Below, piece after piece: positions 16,439-62,415 of a stretch of DNA of 64,000 bases; the stretch's first letter is position 1, and each line of letters begins with the position of its first letter. The notes under the pieces are model-generated. The model did no database searches. It saw only the letters and a program-made list of their open reading frames with translations, and had not been told where the DNA came from. This DNA comes from Nannocystis bainbridge. Lineage in GTDB: Bacteria > Myxococcota_A > Polyangia > Nannocystales > Nannocystaceae. The translations under genes were made by a program, and so were the position numbers. Where the stretch lies: contig NZ_JAQNDL010000001.1 of NCBI RefSeq assembly GCF_028368995.1, positions 192,001 through 256,000 of the forward strand, given 5' to 3'.

Positions 16439-17272
16439 TCACCCGACCAGCACGGTGCCGACGCTGCCCGGCGCGGCCGCCTCGGCCTGCAGCGCGCCCG
16501 CGTTGGCGCCGAGGATGTGCACTGCGCCGATCCCGAGGGCCAGGTTGGCCAGCGCCTCCTCGACCTTCGGGATCATGCCGCCGACGATCCCCTTCATCTC
16601 GATCGCGCCGCGGGCCTCGGCCGCGCTGAGGCGGGCGATCCGCGTGCTCGGGTCGTCCTTGTCGCGCAGCACCCCCGGCACGCCGGTCATGAGGAACAGG
16701 TGATCGACCTTCAGCGCGCCCGCGATCGCCGACGACACCGTGTCGGCGTTGATGTTGAAGACCGGGCAGGTGGAGCCCTCGGTGTCGAGCCCGACGCCGA
16801 GCGTGTTGATCACCGGCGTGTAACCGCCGGCCCACAGGTGCTCGATGAGCGCGGTGCGGATCTCGACGACGTCGCCGACCAGACCGAAGTCGACCAGCTC
16901 CTCGTCGCCGCCGCTGACGCGCGTGGGCGGACGTCGGCGCGCCGTCACCAGCCCCGCGCTCACGCCCGAGATCCCGAGCGCGCCGCCGAGCCCGGCCGCG
17001 AGCGCGGCCGCGACGACGTCGACCGAGAGCTCGCCGGCGAGCACGTACTTCATCACCTGCAGGGTCGCCGCGTCGGTGACCCGACGGCCGCCGACCTTGA
17101 CGGGCTGCAGCCCGAGCCGCTCCTGCAGCGCGTTGGCCTGCGGCCCGCCGCCGTGGCAGATGGCGAACTTCCAGCCGGCCGCGGTGAGCCGGGCGACGTC
17201 GCCGAGCACCGCCGCGAGGGCGGACGCGTCGGCGATGACTTCGCCGCCGAACTTGAGGACCGCCGTCGTCAT
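16439..17272 (-). CDS. argB: Acetylglutamate kinase
   Basis: VLKFGG, HGGGPQ, GRRVTD, NINAD, GGMIPKV. Confidence 0.95.
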   Translation of the reverse strand: MTTAVLKFGGEVIADASALAAVLGDVARLTAAGWKFAICHGGGPQANALQERLGLQPVKVGGRRVTDAATLQVMKYVLAGELSVDVVAAALAAGLGGALGISGVSAGLVTARRRPPTRVSGGDEELVDFGLVGDVVEIRTALIEHLWAGGYTPVINTLGVGLDTEGSTCPVFNINADTVSSAIAGALKVDHLFLMTGVPGVLRDKDDPSTRIARLSAAEARGAIEMKGIVGGMIPKVEEALANLALGIGAVHILGANAGALQAEAAAPGSVGTVLVG

Positions 17273-18333
17273 GGCCACAGCCCCGGGGCGTCGATGCCGG
17301 CCGTCTCCGCGAGCCCGAGCATCAGGTTCATCGACTGCACCGCCTGCCCTGCCCCGCCCTTGACGAGGTTGTCGAGCGCGGTGACCACCGCCAGCTGGCG
17401 CTGACCGGTCGCCGGATCGACCTGTCCCAAAGTCCAGGACAGGTCGACGTACATGCTGCCCTTGATCGCCACCACCTCGGCGCCGACCTTGCTGCCGAGC
17501 ACGCGCACGAACGGGGCATCGCGGTAGTACTCGCCGAACAGCGCCTTGACATCGAGGTCGCCCGGCACCGAGATGATGGTGGTCGCCAGGATCCCGCGCA
17601 CCAGCGGCGCCGAGACTGGCACGAATGCCAGCGAGAACGCCTCCCCGTGGCCGCCCGCCGCGTCGCGCAGGGCCTGCTCGATCTCCGGCGTGTGCTGGTG
17701 GTTCAACACCTTGTACGTCTTGAGGTTGCCGGCGCGCAGCGGGTGGTGCGTGCCGATCTGCGCGTAGGCCCCCGAGCCGGACGAGCCGGTCATCGCCACG
17801 GTGTGGATGGGTCCGCGCAGCAGCCCCGCGTGGGCCAGCGGCAGCAGACCGAGCGCGATCGCGGTGGCGAAGCAGCCCGGCGAGGCGACCCGACGGGCCT
17901 CGCGGATCGCCGCCTTGTGCAGCTCCGGCAGGCCGTAGGCCCACGTGCCGAGGTGCTCGGGGTGCGGGTGAACGTCGCCGTAGAAGGTCTTGTAGTCGTC
18001 CTTGTTGCGCAGGCGAAAGTCGCCCGACAGGTCGATCACCCGCGCCGGCACGTCGGCGAGCTCGCCGGCCATGGTCGCGCTGACCTTGTGCGGCAGCGCC
18101 AGGAACACCACATCGACATCGCGGGCGGCCTCGGCCGCGGGGATGTTCTCGAACACCAGGCCGGTCTTCGGCAGGTTGCGGTGCACCGCCTCGAGCGGCT
18201 CCCCGACCTGGTCGATGCTGGTCACCCGGACCAGGTCGACGCCGGGGTGCCAACGAAGTAACCGGATCAGCTCGGCGCCGCCGTAGCCAGTTCCGCCAAT
18301 AATCGTCACGCGTGGCCGCGAATTCGTGGACAT
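17269..18333 (-). CDS. argC: N-acetyl-gamma-glutamyl-phosphate reductase
   Basis: IIGGTGYGG, FLALPH, IDLSGDFR, YGLPE, PGCFATA, DNLVKGGAGQAVQ. Confidence 0.96.
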   Translation of the reverse strand: MSTNSRPRVTIIGGTGYGGAELIRLLRWHPGVDLVRVTSIDQVGEPLEAVHRNLPKTGLVFENIPAAEAARDVDVVFLALPHKVSATMAGELADVPARVIDLSGDFRLRNKDDYKTFYGDVHPHPEHLGTWAYGLPELHKAAIREARRVASPGCFATAIALGLLPLAHAGLLRGPIHTVAMTGSSGSGAYAQIGTHHPLRAGNLKTYKVLNHQHTPEIEQALRDAAGGHGEAFSLAFVPVSAPLVRGILATTIISVPGDLDVKALFGEYYRDAPFVRVLGSKVGAEVVAIKGSMYVDLSWTLGQVDPATGQRQLAVVTALDNLVKGGAGQAVQSMNLMLGLAETAGIDAPGLWP

Positions 18334-18398
18334 GGGCTCTGTGCGGGACTTCCTAGCAGATGCCCGGGACCCGCGCGATGTCCGGCCTCGCCCGCGCA

Positions 18399-18495
18399 CG
18401 ACATCGCTGTCATGGCCTGTCGCGGCGGCCGGCGGGCCAGGACTGACAGCGGTGTCATACCGGCGCGGTGCGGGCCCGCTCATGACAACCTGTCA
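18399..18495. promoter_or_regulatory. Three TGACA-N3/4-TGTCA palindromes (candidate activator/UAS or repressor sites)
   Basis: CGACA-TCGC-TGTCA 18399-18412; TGACA-GCGG-TGTCA 18444-18457; TGACA-ACC-TGTCA 18483-18495. Confidence 0.6.
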
Positions 18496-18521
18496 TCAAT
18501 GATCTCGACGACTTGCCAACC

Positions 18522-18537
18522 TGGCTCGTGACCTGCA
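18522..18537 (+). promoter_or_regulatory. Candidate sigma54 (-24/-12) promoter
   Basis: TGGCTCG-TGAC-CTGCA matches TGGCACG-N4-TTGCW with exact GG-N10-GC spacing. Confidence 0.65.
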
Positions 18538-18546
18538 CTCAGGGTC

Positions 18547-18804
18547 GGTGTCGCCGGAATGACGCCGTCGACCCTACTTACCTTAGCTCTTCTGCTTGGC
18601 CTTCTTTAGCTTCCTGCCTTACGTCGCTTATCGCTTGGCTTCGGCTTCTTCTGACTTGAACCTTCGCGCTCAACTTACCCGCTTCTCCTAACGTATCGAG
18701 TCGTTTGAGCTTGTCGCGCTTCGCTTGGTCGGTGCAGTAGCAACTTCTTAGATCTGGGGGGGGACCCGGGATGCTTTGGTCGGCATCTCGGGTTCTCGAT
18801 TTTA
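18547..18804 (+). ncRNA. Candidate small RNA with CUU-repeat core
   Basis: Lower-GC island. 5' hairpin at the predicted +1; 22 CTT triplets counted in about 18577-18750; 3' hairpin followed by GATTTT. The G-U pairs form only on the + strand. Confidence 0.6.
18760..18804 (+). terminator. Intrinsic terminator-like hairpin
   Basis: GGGGACCCGGGATGC / GCATCTCGGGTTCTC 15-bp stem (3 G-U) then GATTTT. Confidence 0.6.
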
Positions 18805-18860
18805 AGCCCCCGAACGCCAGGCTCGCGGACCTCAGCACCAGCCAGGCTCAGCCCCGCGGC

Positions 18861-19781
18861 TCAGTGCAGGTGGTCGTCGGGCTCGATCACGTGGTCGGCC
18901 AGCCGCTCGACCTGGTCGCGTCCGAGCAGCCCCTGCAGCGCCGATTCGAGCTCGGCGCGCCCGGGTTCACCTGTCCCGAGGGCCAGGTGTGAAGCCGCGA
19001 CCGCGAAATGCCCGCGCACCCCGCAGCGCTCGCCGAACGGCATCGCGTGGACCGCGGGCGCCCAGCCGTCGCGCGCCAGGCGCTCGTGGTCGGCCCGGAT
19101 CGGCCCGCCACACCGCGGACACACGAGCTCGCCCTGGGCCTCGCCGCGCCACAGTGTGATCAACGGATCGCGCCCGCCCGGCCGCGCGCCCGACCACCAG
19201 CGCGAGTCGAACGGCAGCACGCCCGCCAGCTCGCGCGGGAGCAGCCCCTCGGCCCGGAACCACGCGGCGCTGAGGTAGTACGCCGGGGCCTGCCGCTGCT
19301 CCTGCTCGCGGGCCTCGACGAACAGCGACGGCCGCTCGAAGTGCGGGTCGACCGACCACGAGGCCTCGAGCCGCTCGCGCATCGGCCCGCCCATGCGCGT
19401 GAAGCGATGACCGACGACCACGCGCGTGAGGCGGTCGGCGAACACCCACAGCACGTTGCTGAGCTTGTGCCAGGGGTCGATGTTGAGGTCGCAGACCTTG
19501 AGCTTGTCGCACGCGAGCCCCTCGCGCGCGCGCCAGACCGACACCAGCTTGAGCTCGATGCGGTCCTCCCAGTCGAGGTGATCGAGGCCGTCGTGCGGCT
19601 CGAGGCCGAAGTGCCACTGCAGCGCGCTGCCGAACCGCCCGCGTGAGCCGCGAGGCGCGACCAACTCGGCGGCTGGCCCCAAAGCCAGGCCGCGCGCGTG
19701 CTCGGCCAGCGCCTCGAGGTAGGCGCAGCGCAGCAGCGGCGCGTCGCGCCCGTGCGGCGGGTGGCGGAGCGGCAGCCGCAT
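18861..19781 (-). CDS. MutH/Sau3AI-like PD-(D/E)XK endonuclease with C-terminal Zn-finger-like extension
   Basis: RGRFGSALQWHFG..LDWEDRIELKLV..KLKVC..KLSNVLWV resembles the MutH core; CPRCGG...H..C tail. Confidence 0.6.
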   Translation of the reverse strand: MRLPLRHPPHGRDAPLLRCAYLEALAEHARGLALGPAAELVAPRGSRGRFGSALQWHFGLEPHDGLDHLDWEDRIELKLVSVWRAREGLACDKLKVCDLNIDPWHKLSNVLWVFADRLTRVVVGHRFTRMGGPMRERLEASWSVDPHFERPSLFVEAREQEQRQAPAYYLSAAWFRAEGLLPRELAGVLPFDSRWWSGARPGGRDPLITLWRGEAQGELVCPRCGGPIRADHERLARDGWAPAVHAMPFGERCGVRGHFAVAASHLALGTGEPGRAELESALQGLLGRDQVERLADHVIEPDDHLH

Positions 19782-19794
19782 CGCCGGGACCGGA

Positions 19795-20016
19795 CTACTT
19801 CGCCTCGGGCGCGGGCGCGGGCGCGGGAGCGGCCTCGGGCGCGGGCGCAGGCGCGGCGTCAGCCGGCTTGACCTCGGGCTTCGCGTCGACCTTCTTGCCG
19901 TCGACGGTCTTCGCCTCGGACTTGGTGTCCTCTTCCTTCTTCTTGCCCGGCTGCTCGGCGCACGCGGCGGTAAAACCGAGACACAGGGCCAACAGGGTCC
20001 AGGTGAGACGCTTCAT
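19795..20016 (-). CDS. Small lipoprotein (Lys/Pro/Ala-rich)
   Basis: MKRLTWTLLALCLGFTAAC lipobox; typical GC3 codon usage. Confidence 0.75.
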   Translation of the reverse strand: MKRLTWTLLALCLGFTAACAEQPGKKKEEDTKSEAKTVDGKKVDAKPEVKPADAAPAPAPEAAPAPAPAPEAK

Positions 20017-20025
20017 GCCGGCAAG

Positions 20026-20412
20026 CTAGCACTCCGCGTCACGCGGCGGAAGTACGCGCTGGATCGGCACCGGACGGCCGCGGTCGTCGACCTGCACGTA
20101 GACCAGCTCGGCGGTGGTGACCTCGACGCTGCGCCCGCCGATCGGCTCTTGCGCCTCGACCCGTACGCGGATGGTCAGCGAACTCGAGCCGACGTCGGTG
20201 ACCTCGGCGAACAGGCTGACGATGTCGCCGACGTGCACCGGCTCCTTGAACACGACCTCGCGGACCGCCACCGTAACGACCTTGCGCGCGCCGATGGCGT
20301 GGGCCGCGACCGCCCCGGCCTGGTCGAGCAAGCTGAGGATGTGACCGCCGAAGATCGTGCCGTGCGCGTTGGTGTCGCGCGGCATCATCATGACCCGAAT
20401 CGCGGGCTGCAT
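20026..20412 (-). CDS. Acyl-CoA thioesterase (YciA-like hotdog fold)
   Basis: PRDTNAHGTIFGGHILSLLDQAG, FKEPVHVGD, YVQVDDRGRP. Confidence 0.92.
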   Translation of the reverse strand: MQPAIRVMMMPRDTNAHGTIFGGHILSLLDQAGAVAAHAIGARKVVTVAVREVVFKEPVHVGDIVSLFAEVTDVGSSSLTIRVRVEAQEPIGGRSVEVTTAELVYVQVDDRGRPVPIQRVLPPRDAEC

Positions 20413-20444
20413 GAGGCGGACGATGCGCCAAACGGCGCCGATTG

Positions 20445-20912
20445 TCACGCGGACGGGCGCCCGACGGCGCGCTGGATGGCGGCGTGGATCGTGTCGGCGT
20501 CGGCGTAGTCGGGGCAGTAGCTGAGCGCTGGATCTCGCTCCGACAGCGCGCGGAAGCGCCGCTCCTCCGCGCCGAAGTCGTACGACAGGATCACCGGCCC
20601 GCGGAAGCCGGCGTCGCGCAGGGCCCGGAGCACGAACAGGCCCTGGTTGTCCTGCTGGAACGCGCGCGCGCGGGCGACGTCGCCGTTGAAGCGGGCCGTC
20701 AGCGCCACGAGGTCGCCGAGCAGCGCCTCGATCGGCGTGCGGTCGAAGCGCATGTCGAGGTACACGAGGTCCGGCTGCAACGACGCCAGCAGCGCGCACG
20801 CCTGCTCGCCGCTCTTGGCCTGCGTGTAGCGGATCCCCCGCGACACGAAGGTCGAGAGGTTGGTCAGATATTCGTCCCCGTCCTCGACGACGAGGACCTT
20901 GATCTCGCTCAT
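20445..20912 (-). CDS. Single-domain response regulator with insertion
   Basis: VLVVEDG, PDLVYLDMRFD, about 30-aa insert, QGLFVLRALR, PVILS. Confidence 0.75.
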   Translation of the reverse strand: MSEIKVLVVEDGDEYLTNLSTFVSRGIRYTQAKSGEQACALLASLQPDLVYLDMRFDRTPIEALLGDLVALTARFNGDVARARAFQQDNQGLFVLRALRDAGFRGPVILSYDFGAEERRFRALSERDPALSYCPDYADADTIHAAIQRAVGRPSA

Positions 20913-23908
20913 GGCCCCTCCTCCACGGTGAAGAACCGCAGCACGACGGCCTTCTGCCAGCCGCGCTCGGGTTCGACGGCGATCGAGCCGTCGTAGCGCG
21001 ACAGGAGGTCGGCGGTGATGCCCATGCCGCGCTCGACGTAGCGACCGCGGAGCATCTCGTTGCTGAGCTGCTCGGTCGAGCGATCCTTGATGCGGATCGC
21101 CAGCGTCGACAAACCAGTGATCTCGTCCATCTCGGTGACGAGGTCGATGCCGAGGGCGATCGGCTTCGGCCCGTACAGCACGCTCGACTGCAGCGAGTTG
21201 CGCAGCACGTTGGTGACGATGTCCTCGAGGTCGCTGTGGAACACGCGGATCTTGGCGCCCTCGCCGTCGATCTGCGGCTCGGCGATCTGGACCGTGGCGA
21301 ACTGCGGCTCGGCGACCACCTGGGCGAAGATCTCACGGATCGTGGCCGGATCGACGGCGACGATGCACAGCGAACGGATGACGCCCGACAGCTCCTCGAA
21401 CGCCTTGCGGCCGAGGACGTGGCCGCTGCGACCGAGCCGGCGCGCCCACTCCAGCTTGAGCGCGTGACGCTCGCGGCTCGGCGCCCGCTGCAGGCCCTCG
21501 AGCCCGCGCAGGTCCTCGAAGGCGGCGATCATGGCGCTGAAGATCGGGTCCTTGCGGTAGAGGTTGAGGTTGATGTTGTGGCTGCGGCCGACCTTCTGCA
21601 GCTCGTCGACGTAGCCGAGGAAGCGCCCATGGATCCCGCGCTCGCGCAGCGAGACGCGGCCCGGAACCGGGGTGGCCTCGTTGCGATCGCGCGGGGCGCC
21701 GAACAGGCGGGCGGCGACGACGGCGGTGCGCGCCTCGGCGTCGGGCTCGTCCATCTCGAGCGCGCGGCCGACGTCGGCCAGGAAGGAGGTGTTGTGCTTG
21801 AGGATCTCGTGGCGAATGAGGCTCAAGATCCGCGCGACCTCGGGGAAGCTCTTCGGCGCCCGCTCGAGCATCTGCGTCAGCGAGGCGCCGCGCAGCCGGC
21901 GATAGACCTGCCACGCCGGGATCGCCACCAGCAGCAGCGCGAGCGCCCCGGCGCCGAGGTAGATGCGCAGGAAGGTCGCGTCCATGCGATCGCGCAGGCG
22001 GTGCGCGGCGTCCCAGTGGAGGTTGTACTCGTCGGCCTCGCGCAAGAACTGGTCGAGCTGCTCCGAGGCCTCGATCAGGTGGTAGTCGTCCCACAGCCGC
22101 TTGGCCAGGCGAAAGCGGGCGGTGGCCGATCCGAGCTCGGCGGCGCGGCGCAGGTGCACGGTCGACTGCGCCGGCAGGTCGCCCTCGAGCAGGATGCCGA
22201 GCCGCTCGTGGACCTCCATCTGCTCCTCGGCGAGCGCGAGGCTCTGCTCCCAGAACTGACGCGCGTCGCCGGTGCGGCCCTGGGCGTACACGACCTTGGC
22301 GAGCTCGTTGTAGACGACCGGCTCGCTGCGAAACCGCTCGCGCGCGCGCTGCAGGATCTTCTCGGCCTGGTTGAGGTCGCCTTCTTCGGAGACGCGCAGG
22401 TAGGCCTCGTTGATCATGCGCTGCAGCGAGGGATCGAGCCGCTGCAAGTTGTCGGGCGGCTCGTTGAGGTAGAGCGGCTCTTCGGGGCTGACCTCCTGCG
22501 TGAGGTCCTTCAGCGCGCGCTCGGCCTGCGGACGATCGGGGTCGTCGTCGGGCGCGGTGCGGAGGAACCGCTCATAGTGCCGCCGCGCGGCCTCGCGGTT
22601 CTCGCGGGCGTTGAGCTCGCCGAGCAAGATGTGGAGGTGATGCAGGTCGGGCCGCAGCAGCAGCGCCTTCTCGAGGTGCTCGATGGCCCGCACGTCCTCG
22701 GCGCCGGCGAACTGCTTCTTGTAGACGAGGCCGAGAGCCATGTGCGCCTCGTAGTCGAAGCGATCCATGCGCACGGCGAGCTTGAGCTGATCGACGGCCT
22801 TGGGGATCCGGCCCTTGCGGGCGTAGATGACGCCGAGGGTGTAGTGCGCCTTGGGGTACCACGGCGAGTTCTCGATCGCGACCAGCAGGTCGCGCTCGGC
22901 GGCGTCGAGGTCGCCGCCGCGCATCGAGGTGAGCGCGCGCCGGTAGCTCTGCTCGGCGAACTCGCTCGGCCGCCCGCCCTGCTCCTTCTCGAGCTTGTTG
23001 AGCTCGACCTGCAGCCGCAGCTCGTCGACCTGCTCCTTGGCCCGCTTGGCCAGCGGAGTACCCGGGTAGGCGCCGCTGAGCTCCTCGTTGATGGCGATCG
23101 CGGCCTCGATGTCGTTCTGCTCGAGCAGCAGGTCGGCCTGCAACCGCAGGGCGTCGGCGCCCGGCTTGCGCCCGCCGGCGACGCACTCGCGGCGGTAGAG
23201 GTCGAGCTGCTTGAGCGCCGCCTCGCGCTGGCTGTCGCGCTCGCGGGTCGAGGCGGCCTTCTCGGCCTGGCGGTTGAGCAAGGCGGCGACGGTGAAGCGG
23301 ATCTCCGGCGGCCGACCCTCGGTGCGCGGGTCCTGCTCGGCGATCTCGAGCGCGAGGTTGAGGCGCTCGTCGTCGTAGCGCTCCTCGCAGCGGCCCATCC
23401 ACTCGACGAGGGTGCGCCGCTCGGCCAGCCACAAGCCGCGCGGGTCGTAGGTGCGCAGCAGCTTGAGGTCGTCGATCGCCCGCCGCGGGCAGGTGTTCTC
23501 GCGCGCGCGACGGGCCCGCAAGTAGGCCCGCCCGCGCAGCGCCCCGGGGTCGCCGGGCTGGAGCTTGAGCGCGTTGTTGTACTCGCGCAGGGCGTCGTCC
23601 GCCCGCCCCTCGCGCTCGAGCCGGGTGGCCCGGCTCATGCTGATGTCGAACTGCTCCATCCGCTGCTCGGGGGTCAGCCCGCCGGGCTCGTCGAAGCCGG
23701 CGCTGTCGTCCTCGGGTGGCAGCGGCAGCTCGGCCAGCGGGTCGTAGACCGGCTTGATGGTGCTCTCTTCGGCCTTGCCGGGCTTCTTGACGGCCTTGCT
23801 GGCGGTCGGGGCGGGCGCGGCCGCGGCGAGGCTCGGGCTGGCGATGAGGACATGTGCGAAGAGACATGCCCCAAGGAGCCTTGCCGATCGGACATGTCCC
23901 TTGCGCAT
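20909..23908 (-). CDS. Membrane protein: extracytoplasmic TPR array, TM, degenerate histidine-kinase domain
   Basis: Signal peptide, many TPRs, TM IYLGAGALALLLVAIPAW, H-box-like LIRHEILKH, N-box TNVLRNS, IRIKDRS, GMGI. Confidence 0.75.
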   Translation of the reverse strand: MRKGHVRSARLLGACLFAHVLIASPSLAAAAPAPTASKAVKKPGKAEESTIKPVYDPLAELPLPPEDDSAGFDEPGGLTPEQRMEQFDISMSRATRLEREGRADDALREYNNALKLQPGDPGALRGRAYLRARRARENTCPRRAIDDLKLLRTYDPRGLWLAERRTLVEWMGRCEERYDDERLNLALEIAEQDPRTEGRPPEIRFTVAALLNRQAEKAASTRERDSQREAALKQLDLYRRECVAGGRKPGADALRLQADLLLEQNDIEAAIAINEELSGAYPGTPLAKRAKEQVDELRLQVELNKLEKEQGGRPSEFAEQSYRRALTSMRGGDLDAAERDLLVAIENSPWYPKAHYTLGVIYARKGRIPKAVDQLKLAVRMDRFDYEAHMALGLVYKKQFAGAEDVRAIEHLEKALLLRPDLHHLHILLGELNARENREAARRHYERFLRTAPDDDPDRPQAERALKDLTQEVSPEEPLYLNEPPDNLQRLDPSLQRMINEAYLRVSEEGDLNQAEKILQRARERFRSEPVVYNELAKVVYAQGRTGDARQFWEQSLALAEEQMEVHERLGILLEGDLPAQSTVHLRRAAELGSATARFRLAKRLWDDYHLIEASEQLDQFLREADEYNLHWDAAHRLRDRMDATFLRIYLGAGALALLLVAIPAWQVYRRLRGASLTQMLERAPKSFPEVARILSLIRHEILKHNTSFLADVGRALEMDEPDAEARTAVVAARLFGAPRDRNEATPVPGRVSLRERGIHGRFLGYVDELQKVGRSHNINLNLYRKDPIFSAMIAAFEDLRGLEGLQRAPSRERHALKLEWARRLGRSGHVLGRKAFEELSGVIRSLCIVAVDPATIREIFAQVVAEPQFATVQIAEPQIDGEGAKIRVFHSDLEDIVTNVLRNSLQSSVLYGPKPIALGIDLVTEMDEITGLSTLAIRIKDRSTEQLSNEMLRGRYVERGMGITADLLSRYDGSIAVEPERGWQKAVVLRFFTVEEGP

Positions 23909-23910
23909 GG
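23848..23910. repeat. 14-bp periodic array overlapping start codon and signal-peptide codons
   Basis: CATG at 23851, 23865, 23893, 23906. Confidence 0.7.
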
Positions 23911-23990
23911 TCGCTGGCGCGCCCGGGTGACGGGGCCCGGTCAGGATAGCAGACGCGGGCGAGCAGCGACGCATGGTCGGCGGGCCCCCC

Positions 23991-25697
<1,707 letters not shown>

Positions 25698-53576: not shown

Positions 53577-55061
53577 TTAAAAGAGCTTACGGCGTTTCGC
53601 GCTGGAGAGCACGCCGAGCTGCTCGCGGTATTTGGCGACCGTCCGCCGGGCGATGTCGATGCCCTCCTCCTGCAAGAGCTCGACGAGCCGCTGATCACTG
53701 TACGGATGAGCCTCGTCCTCGAGGTCGATGAGCTTCTTGATGCGCTCCTTGACGGCCTCGCTGGCGAGGTCGTCGCCGGTGGTGCGGCTGATGCCGGCGT
53801 TGAAGAAATACTTGAGCTCGAAGATACCCAGCGGGGTGTGCACGTACTTGTTGGTGGTCACCCGCGAGACCGTCGACTCGTGCATCTCGATGTCCTCGGC
53901 GACGTCCTTGAGGATCAGCGGCCGCAAGTGCTGCGGGCCGCGCTCGAAGAACTCGCGCTGGAACTTGAGGATGCTCTTCGTGACCTTGATGATGGTGCGC
54001 TGGCGCTGCTGGATCGAGCGGATGAGCCACTGCGCCGAGCGCATGCGTTCGTGGATGTACTCTTTGGCCTTGGGGTGCTCGCCCACGGCCTCTTTGTAGA
54101 GCCCGCTGATGCGCAGCCGCGGCAGGCCGTCTTCGTTCAGCGTGACCAGGAGCTCCTCGCCGACCTTGATGATGTACACGTCGGGGGTGATGTATTGCGG
54201 CTGCTCGACCCCGTAGGCCCGCGCCGGCCGTGGGTCCATGCCCATGATCACTTTGGTCGCCTCGTAGACCTCCTCGAGCGCCTCGCCGGTATCCCGGGCC
54301 ACCGCCTGGTAGTTGCGGATCTCGAGGTTGTGCAGGTGCTTGGCGATGATCGCCCGCACCAGCGGATCCTCGACCGGGTGCTCGGGGTGGTTGGCCTGCA
54401 CCCACAAGCACTCGGCGAGGTTGCGCGAGCCGATCGCCACCGGGTCGAGCTGCTGGATCTTGCGCATCAGCGTCTCGACCTTGAGCGTCGACACGCCGAG
54501 CTTGCGCGCGATCTGGGTGGCGCTCTCCTGCAAGTAACCCGCGGGCGACAGGCAGCGCACGATGTACTCGGCGACGTCCTCGCCGGTCTCGTCGAAGTTG
54601 GAGAGCCGCACCTGCCACATCAGGTGCTCGGCCAGCGTCTCGGCGCGGGTCAGCGTCGCCTCGAGCGAGGGCCCCTCTTCGTCGTCGTTGTTGTTCCTCG
54701 TGGCGCCGGTGGCCGACGGCGGCATGTACTCCATAGAGTCGGCGTAGGCGTCCCAGTCGGCGCCTTCCTTGGGCACCTCGTCGGCCTTGACCTCGGGCGC
54801 GCTGCGCTCGGGCTCCGCCTGGGCCTGCTCCTGCTGCGGCGCGTCGACCGCGTCCTGCAGCTCGACCGAGCTCACCGGCTCCTCGGCGCTGGTGCCGATC
54901 TCGTGCGCCTCCTCGAGCAGCGGGTTCTCCATCAGCTCGCTGCGCACCAGGTCGACGAGCTCGGGACGGGACAGCTGAAGCAGCTTGATGGCCTGCTGGA
55001 GCTGCGGCGTCATCACGAGCTGCGTGCTCATCCGCAAGTCTTGGCGCATCTGAAGTGCCAT
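53577..55061 (-). CDS. rpoN: RNA polymerase sigma-54 factor
   Basis: MTPQLQQAIKLLQL, HESTVSR, RpoN box ARRTVAKYRE. Confidence 0.98.
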   Translation of the reverse strand: MALQMRQDLRMSTQLVMTPQLQQAIKLLQLSRPELVDLVRSELMENPLLEEAHEIGTSAEEPVSSVELQDAVDAPQQEQAQAEPERSAPEVKADEVPKEGADWDAYADSMEYMPPSATGATRNNNDDEEGPSLEATLTRAETLAEHLMWQVRLSNFDETGEDVAEYIVRCLSPAGYLQESATQIARKLGVSTLKVETLMRKIQQLDPVAIGSRNLAECLWVQANHPEHPVEDPLVRAIIAKHLHNLEIRNYQAVARDTGEALEEVYEATKVIMGMDPRPARAYGVEQPQYITPDVYIIKVGEELLVTLNEDGLPRLRISGLYKEAVGEHPKAKEYIHERMRSAQWLIRSIQQRQRTIIKVTKSILKFQREFFERGPQHLRPLILKDVAEDIEMHESTVSRVTTNKYVHTPLGIFELKYFFNAGISRTTGDDLASEAVKERIKKLIDLEDEAHPYSDQRLVELLQEEGIDIARRTVAKYREQLGVLSSAKRRKLF

Positions 55062-61809: not shown

Positions 61810-62014
61810 GTTTCGGAACTTACGTTTTTTTTAGAAGGCTCTCAACTAACAAAACCCCGCCAAACCGGGGAAAGCTGGCGCGGAATATGTGAGTCAGCGC
61901 GCGATCGCGCCGTTGACAAGCGCGCGCTCGCAAGCGCAGGTAGGGCCCTCGCCTGGCCGGAACCCGGTCCGAGGCGCGCTGCTTGACAAGTCATCCACGC
62001 ACGCGGTCGGGCTG

Positions 62015-62203
62015 GATCTCCAGCCCGGTTCGAAGAGGGAAATCGGTGCGGTGCCTCGACTCACGTCGAGCGCCCAGTCCGATGCGGCTCCCGCCACTGT
62101 GAACGGCGACGAGACCGGCGACCCCGCAAGGGGACCACTGCGGCCATGGGCCGTGGGAAGGCGCCGGTCGAGGATGACCCGTAAGCCAGGAGACCTGCCG
62201 TGT
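62015..62203 (+). ncRNA. Cobalamin riboswitch
   Basis: GGT..AAGAGGGAA.TCGGTG, CCCGCCACTGTGA, CCACTG..GGGAAGG, AAGCCAGGAGACCTGCC; upstream of a TonB receptor. Confidence 0.93.
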
Positions 62204-62415
62204 GCCATGTCCGCCCGCGCCTTTCGGCCGCGGCGGGAGGTCGCGGGAGTTCGACCTCGGGCGCGTCTCGGCGTGGCCCCCGACTCCTGCGATCGCAGCA
62301 CGGCCCGAGGCCGTGACGGCGCCCCGGCTCTCCGGCCGGGGCCTGGTGAGACGGGAGTTCACTCGCCATCGCAATCGCCCCCTTCATACCGCGCCTCCGC
62401 GGCCTCGTCCGCGCC

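Follow-up and report, generated by a model that had tools for sequence, protein, structure and literature searches.

A previously undescribed non-coding RNA gene with a predicted enhancer-dependent promoter and many copies of a short motif in Nannocystis-type soil bacteria

Introduction

What is encoded in the CTT-rich region beside the argC gene of Nannocystis bainbridge? The region lies in a 64-kb stretch of the genome (hereafter the window; G000:C1:192001-256000, where G000 is the genome of this organism, 11.05 Mb in size with 71.5% GC), and coordinates are given below as positions in the window unless a contig is named. A sequence-only reading of the window had proposed a sigma54-dependent small RNA with repeated CUU triplets that would act as a sponge for a protein. 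The comparison with relatives described here identifies the element, at the sequence level, as a previously undescribed and well-conserved non-coding RNA gene of Nannocystis-type soil bacteria, with a predicted enhancer-dependent promoter and many copies of a short motif.

Repeat-motif decoy RNAs, such as CsrB, RsmZ, and CrcZ, are lifestyle master switches in proteobacteria, and each class is tied to one RNA-binding protein. No description of small RNAs in the Nannocystaceae was found in the literature searched, and a full-text search yielded no paper on an RNA of the present kind in Nannocystis or its relatives, a mention in supplementary transcriptome tables being possible.

Organization and conservation of the RNA gene

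The following elements were assigned to the RNA gene.

18399-18412: enhancer (upstream activating sequence) site A, CGACATCGCTGTCA, 123 bp 5′ of the TGGC of the promoter
18444-18457: enhancer site B, TGACAGCGGTGTCA, an exact palindrome 78 bp 5′ of the TGGC
18483-18495: third palindrome, TGACAACCTGTCA, exact, at -39
18522-18537, plus strand: predicted -24/-12 (sigma54-type) promoter, TGGCTCGTGACCTGCA
18547-18803, plus strand: predicted transcript of ~257 nt (5′ end from the promoter geometry, 3′ end from the terminator)
18542-18574, plus strand: 5′ hairpin (RNAfold)
18575-18700, plus strand: pyrimidine-rich repeat core (CUU; UUGGCC, UAGCUU, UGGCUU, and UGACUU)
18701-18759, plus strand: conserved 3′ module with CUUGGUCGGUGC (containing GGUCGGUGC at 18727-18735) and a run of eight G residues at 18756-18763
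18760-18806, plus strand: intrinsic terminator with a 16-bp stem, a loop showing UUGGUC, and then GAUUUUAAG

The segment 18570-18750 (181 nt) contains 22 CTT triplets, 10 of them as GCTT, and no AAG, which is the highest CTT density in the window, and the GC content of the RNA region is 0.51-0.55 compared with ~0.70 in the flanks. The low-GC, pyrimidine-rich, and CTT-dense core described in the sequence-only reading is thus real, as is the hairpin near the predicted start, which RNAfold places within 18542-18574. The terminal hairpin with a T-run is also present, with a stem of 16 rather than 15 bp: RNAfold predicts the hairpin at 18760-18797, followed by GAUUUUAAG. The U-run is short (four residues; GAUUUU), and the combination of a G+C-rich hairpin with a U-run is that of an intrinsic terminator. 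The total folding energy is similar to that of shuffled sequences on both strands (z-scores of -0.20 and +0.12), so the core looks unstructured. At the position of the 5′ hairpin, most homologues have a hairpin of differing sequence, with unremarkable energy z-scores. Because the bare -24/-12 string is common (see below) and the folding energy does not exceed that of shuffles, the case for the gene rests on comparison with relatives.

A BLAST search against 40 relatives identified five full-length orthologues with 81-87% identity. When these are aligned, almost no variation is seen in the enhancer, the promoter, and the final ~120 nt, and the core remains CTT-rich but differs in length, the indels not being multiples of three. 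The closest loci are those of Nannocystis pusilla, N. exedens, and N. punicea, and more distant ones belong to Enhygromyxa, Plesiocystis, Paraliomyxa, and Nannocystaceae metagenome-assembled genomes (MAGs); the layout recurs in more distant loci. Syntenic homologues with a kept CUU density and a covarying stem, which the sequence-only reading had named as a check, were found in the family. The 3′ module is nearly invariant in the genus, and GGUCGGUGC is retained in most genera. All these relatives are kin, and the counts given here and below are not independent of one another.

A covariance model built on the 3′ module (R1) gave exactly one match per genome in 39 of 73 genomes of the family, representing 9 of 17 genera, and none of the 133 genomes sampled from 29 further families in the class was matched. 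Five genomes of the family without a match (genera g14, g32, and g8) were checked, and all five carry the RNA architecture beside the gene for p306, a 306-aa protein convergently encoded next to the RNA gene in the window: each has the enhancer sites followed by a -24/-12-like element, the repeat array, and GGUCGGUGC, and the loop of its terminator shows UUGGUC, but the G-run is absent. The distribution given by the model is thus a lower bound that undercounts carriers of the RNA.

The p306 gene offered a second route to homologues. A collection of 185,579 species yielded 63 loci that encode it, each from this lineage or from a MAG. A strict test (14 or more CTT and no more than 4 AAG within 250 nt, plus an enhancer site upstream) was passed by 48 of the 63 loci, and six further loci (L062, L066, L074, L077, L087, and L090) have matches to the covariance model. 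Flanking sequence is lacking at four loci (L092, L102, L114, and L119), and no convincing RNA was seen at the remaining five (L063, L072, L091, L098, and L104).

In Rfam searches, the best match in the region had an E-value of 0.83 and lay inside the argC coding sequence, with nothing meaningful in the region, and no Rfam family matches the RNA. Across the window, the gathering threshold was exceeded by a single match, a cobalamin riboswitch (61987-62216, plus strand; RF00174, 93.3 bits).

Promoter and enhancer sites

Exact copies of TGACA-N3/4-TGTCA occur twice in the 64-kb window, against 0.05 expected, and none of 100 shuffles reached two. Of the three such palindromes originally noticed, those at 18444 and 18483 are exact, and that at 18399 matches in its left half at four of five positions. 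The palindrome at 18483 (position -39) was seen in no genomes other than the six closest ones (G000, G001, G003, G005, G007, and G010). At the position of this third palindrome, the other genera have ATTTCAA-N4-TTG, which we take to resemble an IHF site.

The proposal of a correctly spaced -24/-12 element at 18522-18537 (TGGCTCGTGACCTGCA) was borne out by the relatives: 29 of the 30 loci compared have an element of the form TGG(C/T)-N8-(T/C)GC(A/T) situated 260-500 nt 5′ of their terminator. Two loci were then dropped (L041, truncated by a contig end, and L036, in which the match was false and inside the RNA), and two NGACA-N4-NGTCA sites with starts 42-45 bp apart were found in all of the 28 loci left. 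The site pairs occupy three registers: -121 to -124 with -78 to -80, -132 to -135 with -88 to -92, and, once, -145 with -101. The registers differ by ~10 or 21 bp between genera, which corresponds to whole helical turns. Enhancer-dependent activation requires the activator sites to lie on the same helix face, and the spacing of the registers by helical turns suggests that this face has been kept. In the 11-Mb genome of N. bainbridge, the NGACA-N4-NGTCA pair occurs at only one other place, where no promoter is present. The window also encodes the DNA-binding domain of sigma54 (rpoN; 53586-54062, minus strand), 35 kb from the RNA gene. With GG and GC 10 bp apart, an rpoN gene, and activator sites on one helix face, the region has the sequence features of a sigma54-dependent promoter.

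Strand and non-coding nature

The helix of the terminator was examined in 43 distinct sequences. Pairing is possible in 97.8% of cells, and both partners have changed at 10 of the 14 pairs. For the whole structure, none of 500 shuffles reached the observed value, and controls in which the structure was slid along the alignment were 46-54% paired compared with 94.9%; the alignment was fitted to the model, so the structure is somewhat favoured in this comparison. Three terminator positions are mostly G-U, and the opposite strand would have A-C mismatches there. The minus strand also has no T-run after the hairpin. Because the conserved G-U pairs and the T-run occur only on the plus strand, the RNA is assigned to this strand, and the orientation that had been deduced from G-U pairs was confirmed for the terminator across homologues. 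In G018 and L115, the entire module (sites, promoter, and RNA) is inverted between the same neighbours, indicating that it behaves as an independent unit.

On the minus strand, an 86-aa open reading frame (ORF; 18578-18838) overlaps the RNA gene. It is broken in all five orthologues of the same genus, in which the longest minus-strand frames are 46-65 aa versus 79, and its GC content at third codon positions (GC3) is 0.57 compared with 0.92-0.96 in the neighbouring genes. Its AAG triplets are split 4, 9, and 9 over the three frames. Neither the frame nor the codon bias expected of a small-protein gene is therefore kept in relatives, and, as the sequence-only reading had preferred, the probable product is the RNA and not this ORF.

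The repeated motif

The motif was analysed in 22 representative cores of the 28 (4353 nt in total), from which the near-duplicates L021, L022, L023, L027, L028, and L030 were excluded. The repeated unit is CUUGGCUU or a close variant of it, and CUU is merely its most constant part; the CTT density that had drawn attention to the locus is real, and CUU is not the true unit. UGGCUU was observed 77 times against 5.8 expected (z-score of 29.5) and UUGGCUU 50 times against 2.5. In a sequence logo aligned on UGG, the consensus is C (69%), U (69%), U, G, G, C (72%), U (66%), and U (90%), and UGACUU, UAGCUU, and UUGGUC/UUGGUCU were found as variants. UUGGUC is likewise part of the loop of the terminator and of the invariant CUUGGUCGGUGC. 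Each RNA contains 0-12 perfect copies of UGGCUU and 4-15 loose copies, whose number and position drift freely among species. A residues account for 470 of the 4353 nt (11%).

The genome of N. bainbridge contains 50 loci with at least 15 CTT or AAG per 180 nt. These were considered as possible relatives and rejected, because, among those listed, each of the others that were read is either a periodic coding repeat of high GC content or a microsatellite. Dozens of high-GC lysine/alanine repeat genes (AAG-GCC type) were noted in this genome (e.g. C1:4369655-4370118, C3:1445369-1446255, and C1:4147379-4147764), and they account for most of the other CTT/AAG-dense places. A tandem ACTT/ACTC array (CTTACTTACTT... 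followed by CTCACTTACTC...) is located in an intergenic-looking region at G000:C5:436390-436732 (minus strand). In two MAGs of the family, perfect (TGGCTT)n arrays were observed at extreme contig ends (G015:C36, G015:C79, G012:C345, and G012:C470).

A second locus with the same motif

A BLAST search of the RNA against its own genome revealed no paralogues by sequence similarity. Elsewhere in this genome, the motif clusters in non-coding DNA at a single place, G000:C1:267380-267590 (plus strand), 57 kb downstream of the RNA gene and 11 kb past the end of the window. This place is flanked by a gene that, judged from its translation, is kptA-like and by a gene for a CAP-domain lipoprotein. It contains three UGGCUU, a UUUGGUCG, hairpins, and a T-run terminator ~20 nt before the lipoprotein gene, and it is conserved in six genomes of the genus with 78-85% identity.

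In genus g2, a long UGGCUU array with its own terminator is located 5′ of a homologous CAP-domain gene (33-36% identity, E-values of 1e-19 to 1e-26). The locus L169 (G054) has clear NGACA-N4-NGTCA sites and TGGC-N8-TGCA, and L171 (G055) has TGGT-N8-TGCA and no enhancer site within the 48 nt examined upstream. L170 is a third locus of the same kind, and at least two of the three g2 loci have enhancer sites. In a family-wide pattern search for three UGGCUU, periodic coding repeats dominated the matches and the controls were about as numerous; the search served only for picking the g2 loci by eye. The second locus and the g2 loci together suggest that the class has paralogues that share the -24/-12 promoter and the repeat and differ in the 3′ end.

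Presence in RNA libraries

Of 24 runs listed with parts of the stretch, four were examined, each an RNA library of soil or rhizosphere from a different study. Each yielded one contig of 154-186 nt that is 95-99% alike and lies wholly inside 18569-18759. The flanks (18100-18568 and 18760-19100) have no cover in the four libraries, which carries no evidential weight. Transcription of the RNA gene is supported, though not proven, by these contigs.

Neighbouring genes

The genes around the RNA gene are the following.

17269-18333, minus strand: argC (N-acetyl-gamma-glutamyl-phosphate reductase; Pfam Semialdhyde_dh and dimerisation domains), divergent neighbour
18861-19781, minus strand: p306, convergent gene for a family-restricted 306-aa protein
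19795-20016, minus strand: 73-aa lipoprotein-like ORF
20026-20460, minus strand: 4HBT thioesterase (Pfam)
20445-20912, minus strand: 155-aa receiver-domain protein (Pfam)
20909-23974, minus strand: 1021-aa TPR protein (Pfam)
23991-25697, minus strand: NtrC-type enhancer-binding protein with receiver and sigma54-interaction domains (Pfam Response_reg and Sigma54_activat)

The argC gene is divergent, as the sequence-only reading had stated, but the conserved neighbours are p306 and the activator cluster rather than argC. The p306 gene adjoins the RNA in 27 of 30 loci. For argC the corresponding count is 26 of 30, but only 35 of the 63 p306 loci have it. The order of the cluster is kept in five of six genomes of other genera, and upstream of p306 the receiver-domain, thioesterase, and TPR genes were found in 52, 51, and 49 of the 63 loci, several of the other loci being truncated.

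Among the 30 NtrC-type activator genes in the genome of N. bainbridge, that at 23991-25697 is nearest to the RNA gene. RNA genes near activator genes are known from crcZ-cbrB, glmY-glrKR, qrr1-luxO, and pxr-nla19 (Pxr belongs to a different myxobacterial suborder), and, by analogy with these, the NtrC-type regulator is the likely cognate activator of the RNA promoter. No Pfam match was found for the C-terminal 360 residues of the TPR protein, and an impression of a kinase-type ATPase fold in this part was discarded as unsupported.

The p306 protein had no match in Pfam, NCBIfam, or Protein Data Bank (PDB) sequences, whether searched as a single sequence or as a profile. Its AlphaFold model has a predicted local distance difference test score of 92.4, and in a Foldseek search of the PDB nothing fell below an E-value of 0.26; in BFVD, one viral protein was matched (E-value of 5.7e-5, template modelling score of 0.38). 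Its language-model features resemble those of MutH/Sau3AI nucleases (score of 0.80), which serves as a lead only. The invariant residues are D70, E72, E76, K78, C221, C224, H245, C253, and H258, and the C-terminus is EPDDHLH; D70, E76, and K78 may form a MutH-like triad. With a pI of 6.6, the protein is not basic. Because p306 shares the lineage restriction of the RNA and adjoins it, it is a candidate partner of the RNA and nothing more.

Possible function of the RNA

The promoter and the terminator are fixed, the density of the motif is the sole constant of the body, and the paralogues share only the promoter and the motif. Judged from established examples, this is the signature of a titrating RNA and not of pairing through a single seed. 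Sequence and comparison establish the gene and its strand, the architecture of promoter and enhancer sites, the terminator, the absence of coding, the motif, and the clustering. We infer the titration mechanism from the signature and the identity of the activator from the gene neighbourhood, and we give an even chance to a sigma54-dependent titrating (protein-decoy) RNA with a dedicated promoter, phased sites, and a motif array. In such a scheme, 18547-18803 (plus strand) would be the gene of an abundant, Nannocystaceae-specific RNA of ~260 nt (260-500 nt in relatives). Its transcription would start from the sigma54 (-24/-12) promoter, activated through the two phased NGACA-N4-NGTCA sites, and stop at the intrinsic terminator; the most likely activator is the NtrC-type response regulator, whose gene lies at a distance of 5 kb in the conserved cluster ending with the RNA gene. 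The RNA body would be a poorly structured C/U-rich string with 4-15 CUUGGCUU-like motifs and two UUGGUC in the 3′ module. In trans, it would act as a decoy that titrates a factor recognising the motif, most probably an RNA-binding protein, so that firing of the sensor would release targets with the same motif; the leader of the CAP-domain lipoprotein gene is a candidate target.

A more specific form of this scheme is a self-contained switch, in which the TPR sensor and the NtrC-type activator would induce a decoy RNA of CUUGGCUU repeats that titrates an RNA-binding protein of a novel type, which would otherwise act on the repeats of the CAP-domain leader to control its terminator. The best candidate for this protein is p306, which is restricted to the family and whose confident model resembles no solved structure. 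We consider this switch speculative and unlikely.

Several observations weigh against the titrating reading. TGGC-N8-TGCA is not rare, with six occurrences in the window against 1.78 expected, so that the weight of the promoter comes from its conservation. The energy of the 5′ hairpin, or of the first 55 nt, is indistinguishable from that of shuffles (approximate dinucleotide shuffle). The RNA of the window itself has one perfect UGGCUU and about 5-7 loose copies, which is why the sequence-only reading saw only CUU. The unpaired probability is 0.48 at motif positions and 0.50 in the rest of the core, and the motifs are thus not specially exposed. The activator was assigned by neighbourhood only, among 30 such genes, and in G024 the stretch retrieved contains p306 and argC but none of the remaining cluster was found there. 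A promoter at the second locus is questionable, since only three of the six genomes keep the GC of its -12 element. The library contigs give no strand, start, or end and may stem from DNA carry-over.

Repeated C/U-rich seeds are known in base-pairing RNAs, and the RNA could instead be a base-pairing regulator or an RNA sponge whose CUUGGCUU copies serve as seeds for AAGCCAAG-like sites in mRNAs or in another small RNA. Two copies of AAGCCAAG 12 nt apart were found at G000:C1 ~1839880-1839905 (minus strand), just 5′ of a GGGTGGAGG stretch in an intergenic-looking region to which no gene start could be assigned. However, AAGCCAAG is not enriched in the genome (67 occurrences against 77 for the reversed control), and the motif copies drift between species, whereas pairing seeds are usually the most fixed part of such RNAs. 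The Pfam model of Hfq finds nothing in this genome (90% complete), so pairing would need to be independent of Hfq. Pairing is accordingly unlikely, and the titrating-RNA signature together with the lack of enrichment of the motif complement favours a decoy for a protein.

The partner of such a decoy could be CsrA, with the RNA as the Nannocystaceae counterpart of CsrB/RsmZ carrying a shifted motif. A CsrA gene is present in N. bainbridge and in all 17 sampled genomes of the family, but outside the family, where the RNA is lacking, 33 of 133 genomes encode CsrA as well. Moreover, GGA is scarce in the cores (17 against 128 GGC in 4353 nt; 1-5 per RNA), and the Rfam models of CsrB, RsmY, and RsmZ do not match. 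A CsrA partner therefore appears quite improbable.

Still less probable is an action in cis on the convergent p306 operon, by transcriptional interference or by pairing with read-through transcripts. The terminator lies 54 nt from the p306 stop codon, the convergence is kept in most loci, and, in the absence of a T-run on the minus strand, transcripts of the operon may run antisense into the RNA gene. Against such an action stand the loci in which the module is inverted (G018 and L115) or lies on the far side of p306 (L066) and is otherwise intact, as well as the paralogues with the same motif at unrelated places; the repeated motif would also remain unexplained. A lysine-rich small protein on the minus strand (the 86-aa ORF), or a decayed KKA-repeat gene, is hardly credible. 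The genome does have many AAG-rich coding repeats, and the frame is open in N. bainbridge, but the frame is disrupted in the relatives, the core indels ignore the triplet periodicity, and the promoter, the T-run, and the G-U pairs are all on the plus strand.

Comparison with known regulatory RNAs

CrcZ and CrcY of Pseudomonas are sigma54- and CbrB-dependent decoy RNAs for Hfq/Crc. The present RNA resembles them in its predicted sigma54 promoter, its repeated short motifs between hairpins, and its position beside two-component activator genes, and the combination of such a promoter with upstream activator sites was found at the sequence level in the 29 of 30 and 28 of 28 loci described above. 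It differs in its motif, which is A-rich in CrcZ (AAnAAnAA/CA) and CUUGGCUU here, in a core poor in A, and in the enhancer sequence; neither an A-rich motif nor Hfq was found. With CsrB/CsrC and RsmX/Y/Z it shares the drift in number and spacing of the motif, the presence of paralogues in a genome, and a terminator hairpin that bears the motif. Unlike those RNAs, it lacks GGA (ANGGA) arrays, with three GGA in the RNA of the window, and its promoter is of the sigma54 type rather than a GacA/UvrY-dependent sigma70 promoter. The Rfam models of CsrB, CsrC, RsmX, RsmY, and RsmZ gave no match up to an E-value of 10 in 17800-19400.

GlmY (with GlrK/GlrR), Qrr (with LuxO), and Pxr (with Nla19) are sigma54-dependent small RNAs encoded beside the genes of their activators (PMC3045617, PMC10162802, and PMC11928866). 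They share with the present locus the proximity of an NtrC-type activator gene, here a candidate one, to one small-RNA promoter that is preceded by several sites. In contrast, each of those RNAs has one structured decoy or seed region and not a long motif array, and their Rfam models do not match here.

The second locus is similar to TRAP- and HutP-type leaders, which contain (G/U)AG or UAG repeats, in having repeats between a promoter and a terminator before a gene, the layout of protein-controlled termination. It differs from them in the motif and its spacing and in the lack of a known ring protein, and no gene follows the main RNA on the plus strand. A type III toxin-antitoxin RNA (ToxI-like) was rejected because the repeat spacing is irregular, the units differ, and the neighbouring gene is convergent. 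By its sequence, the RNA thus defines a new family with a new motif, of CrcZ/CsrB-like design but without the defining motifs of those classes.

Biological significance

The architecture of the RNA is as clear as in the known decoy classes, and its motif fits none of the known binders. Identification of the partner would therefore probably reveal a new RNA-binding regulator. The contigs in soil libraries suggest that the RNA could mark the activity of this group of bacteria. The Nannocystaceae are large-genome, predatory, and secondary-metabolite-producing bacteria of soil and marine habitats, and the RNA gene offers a first handle on post-transcriptional control in this family.

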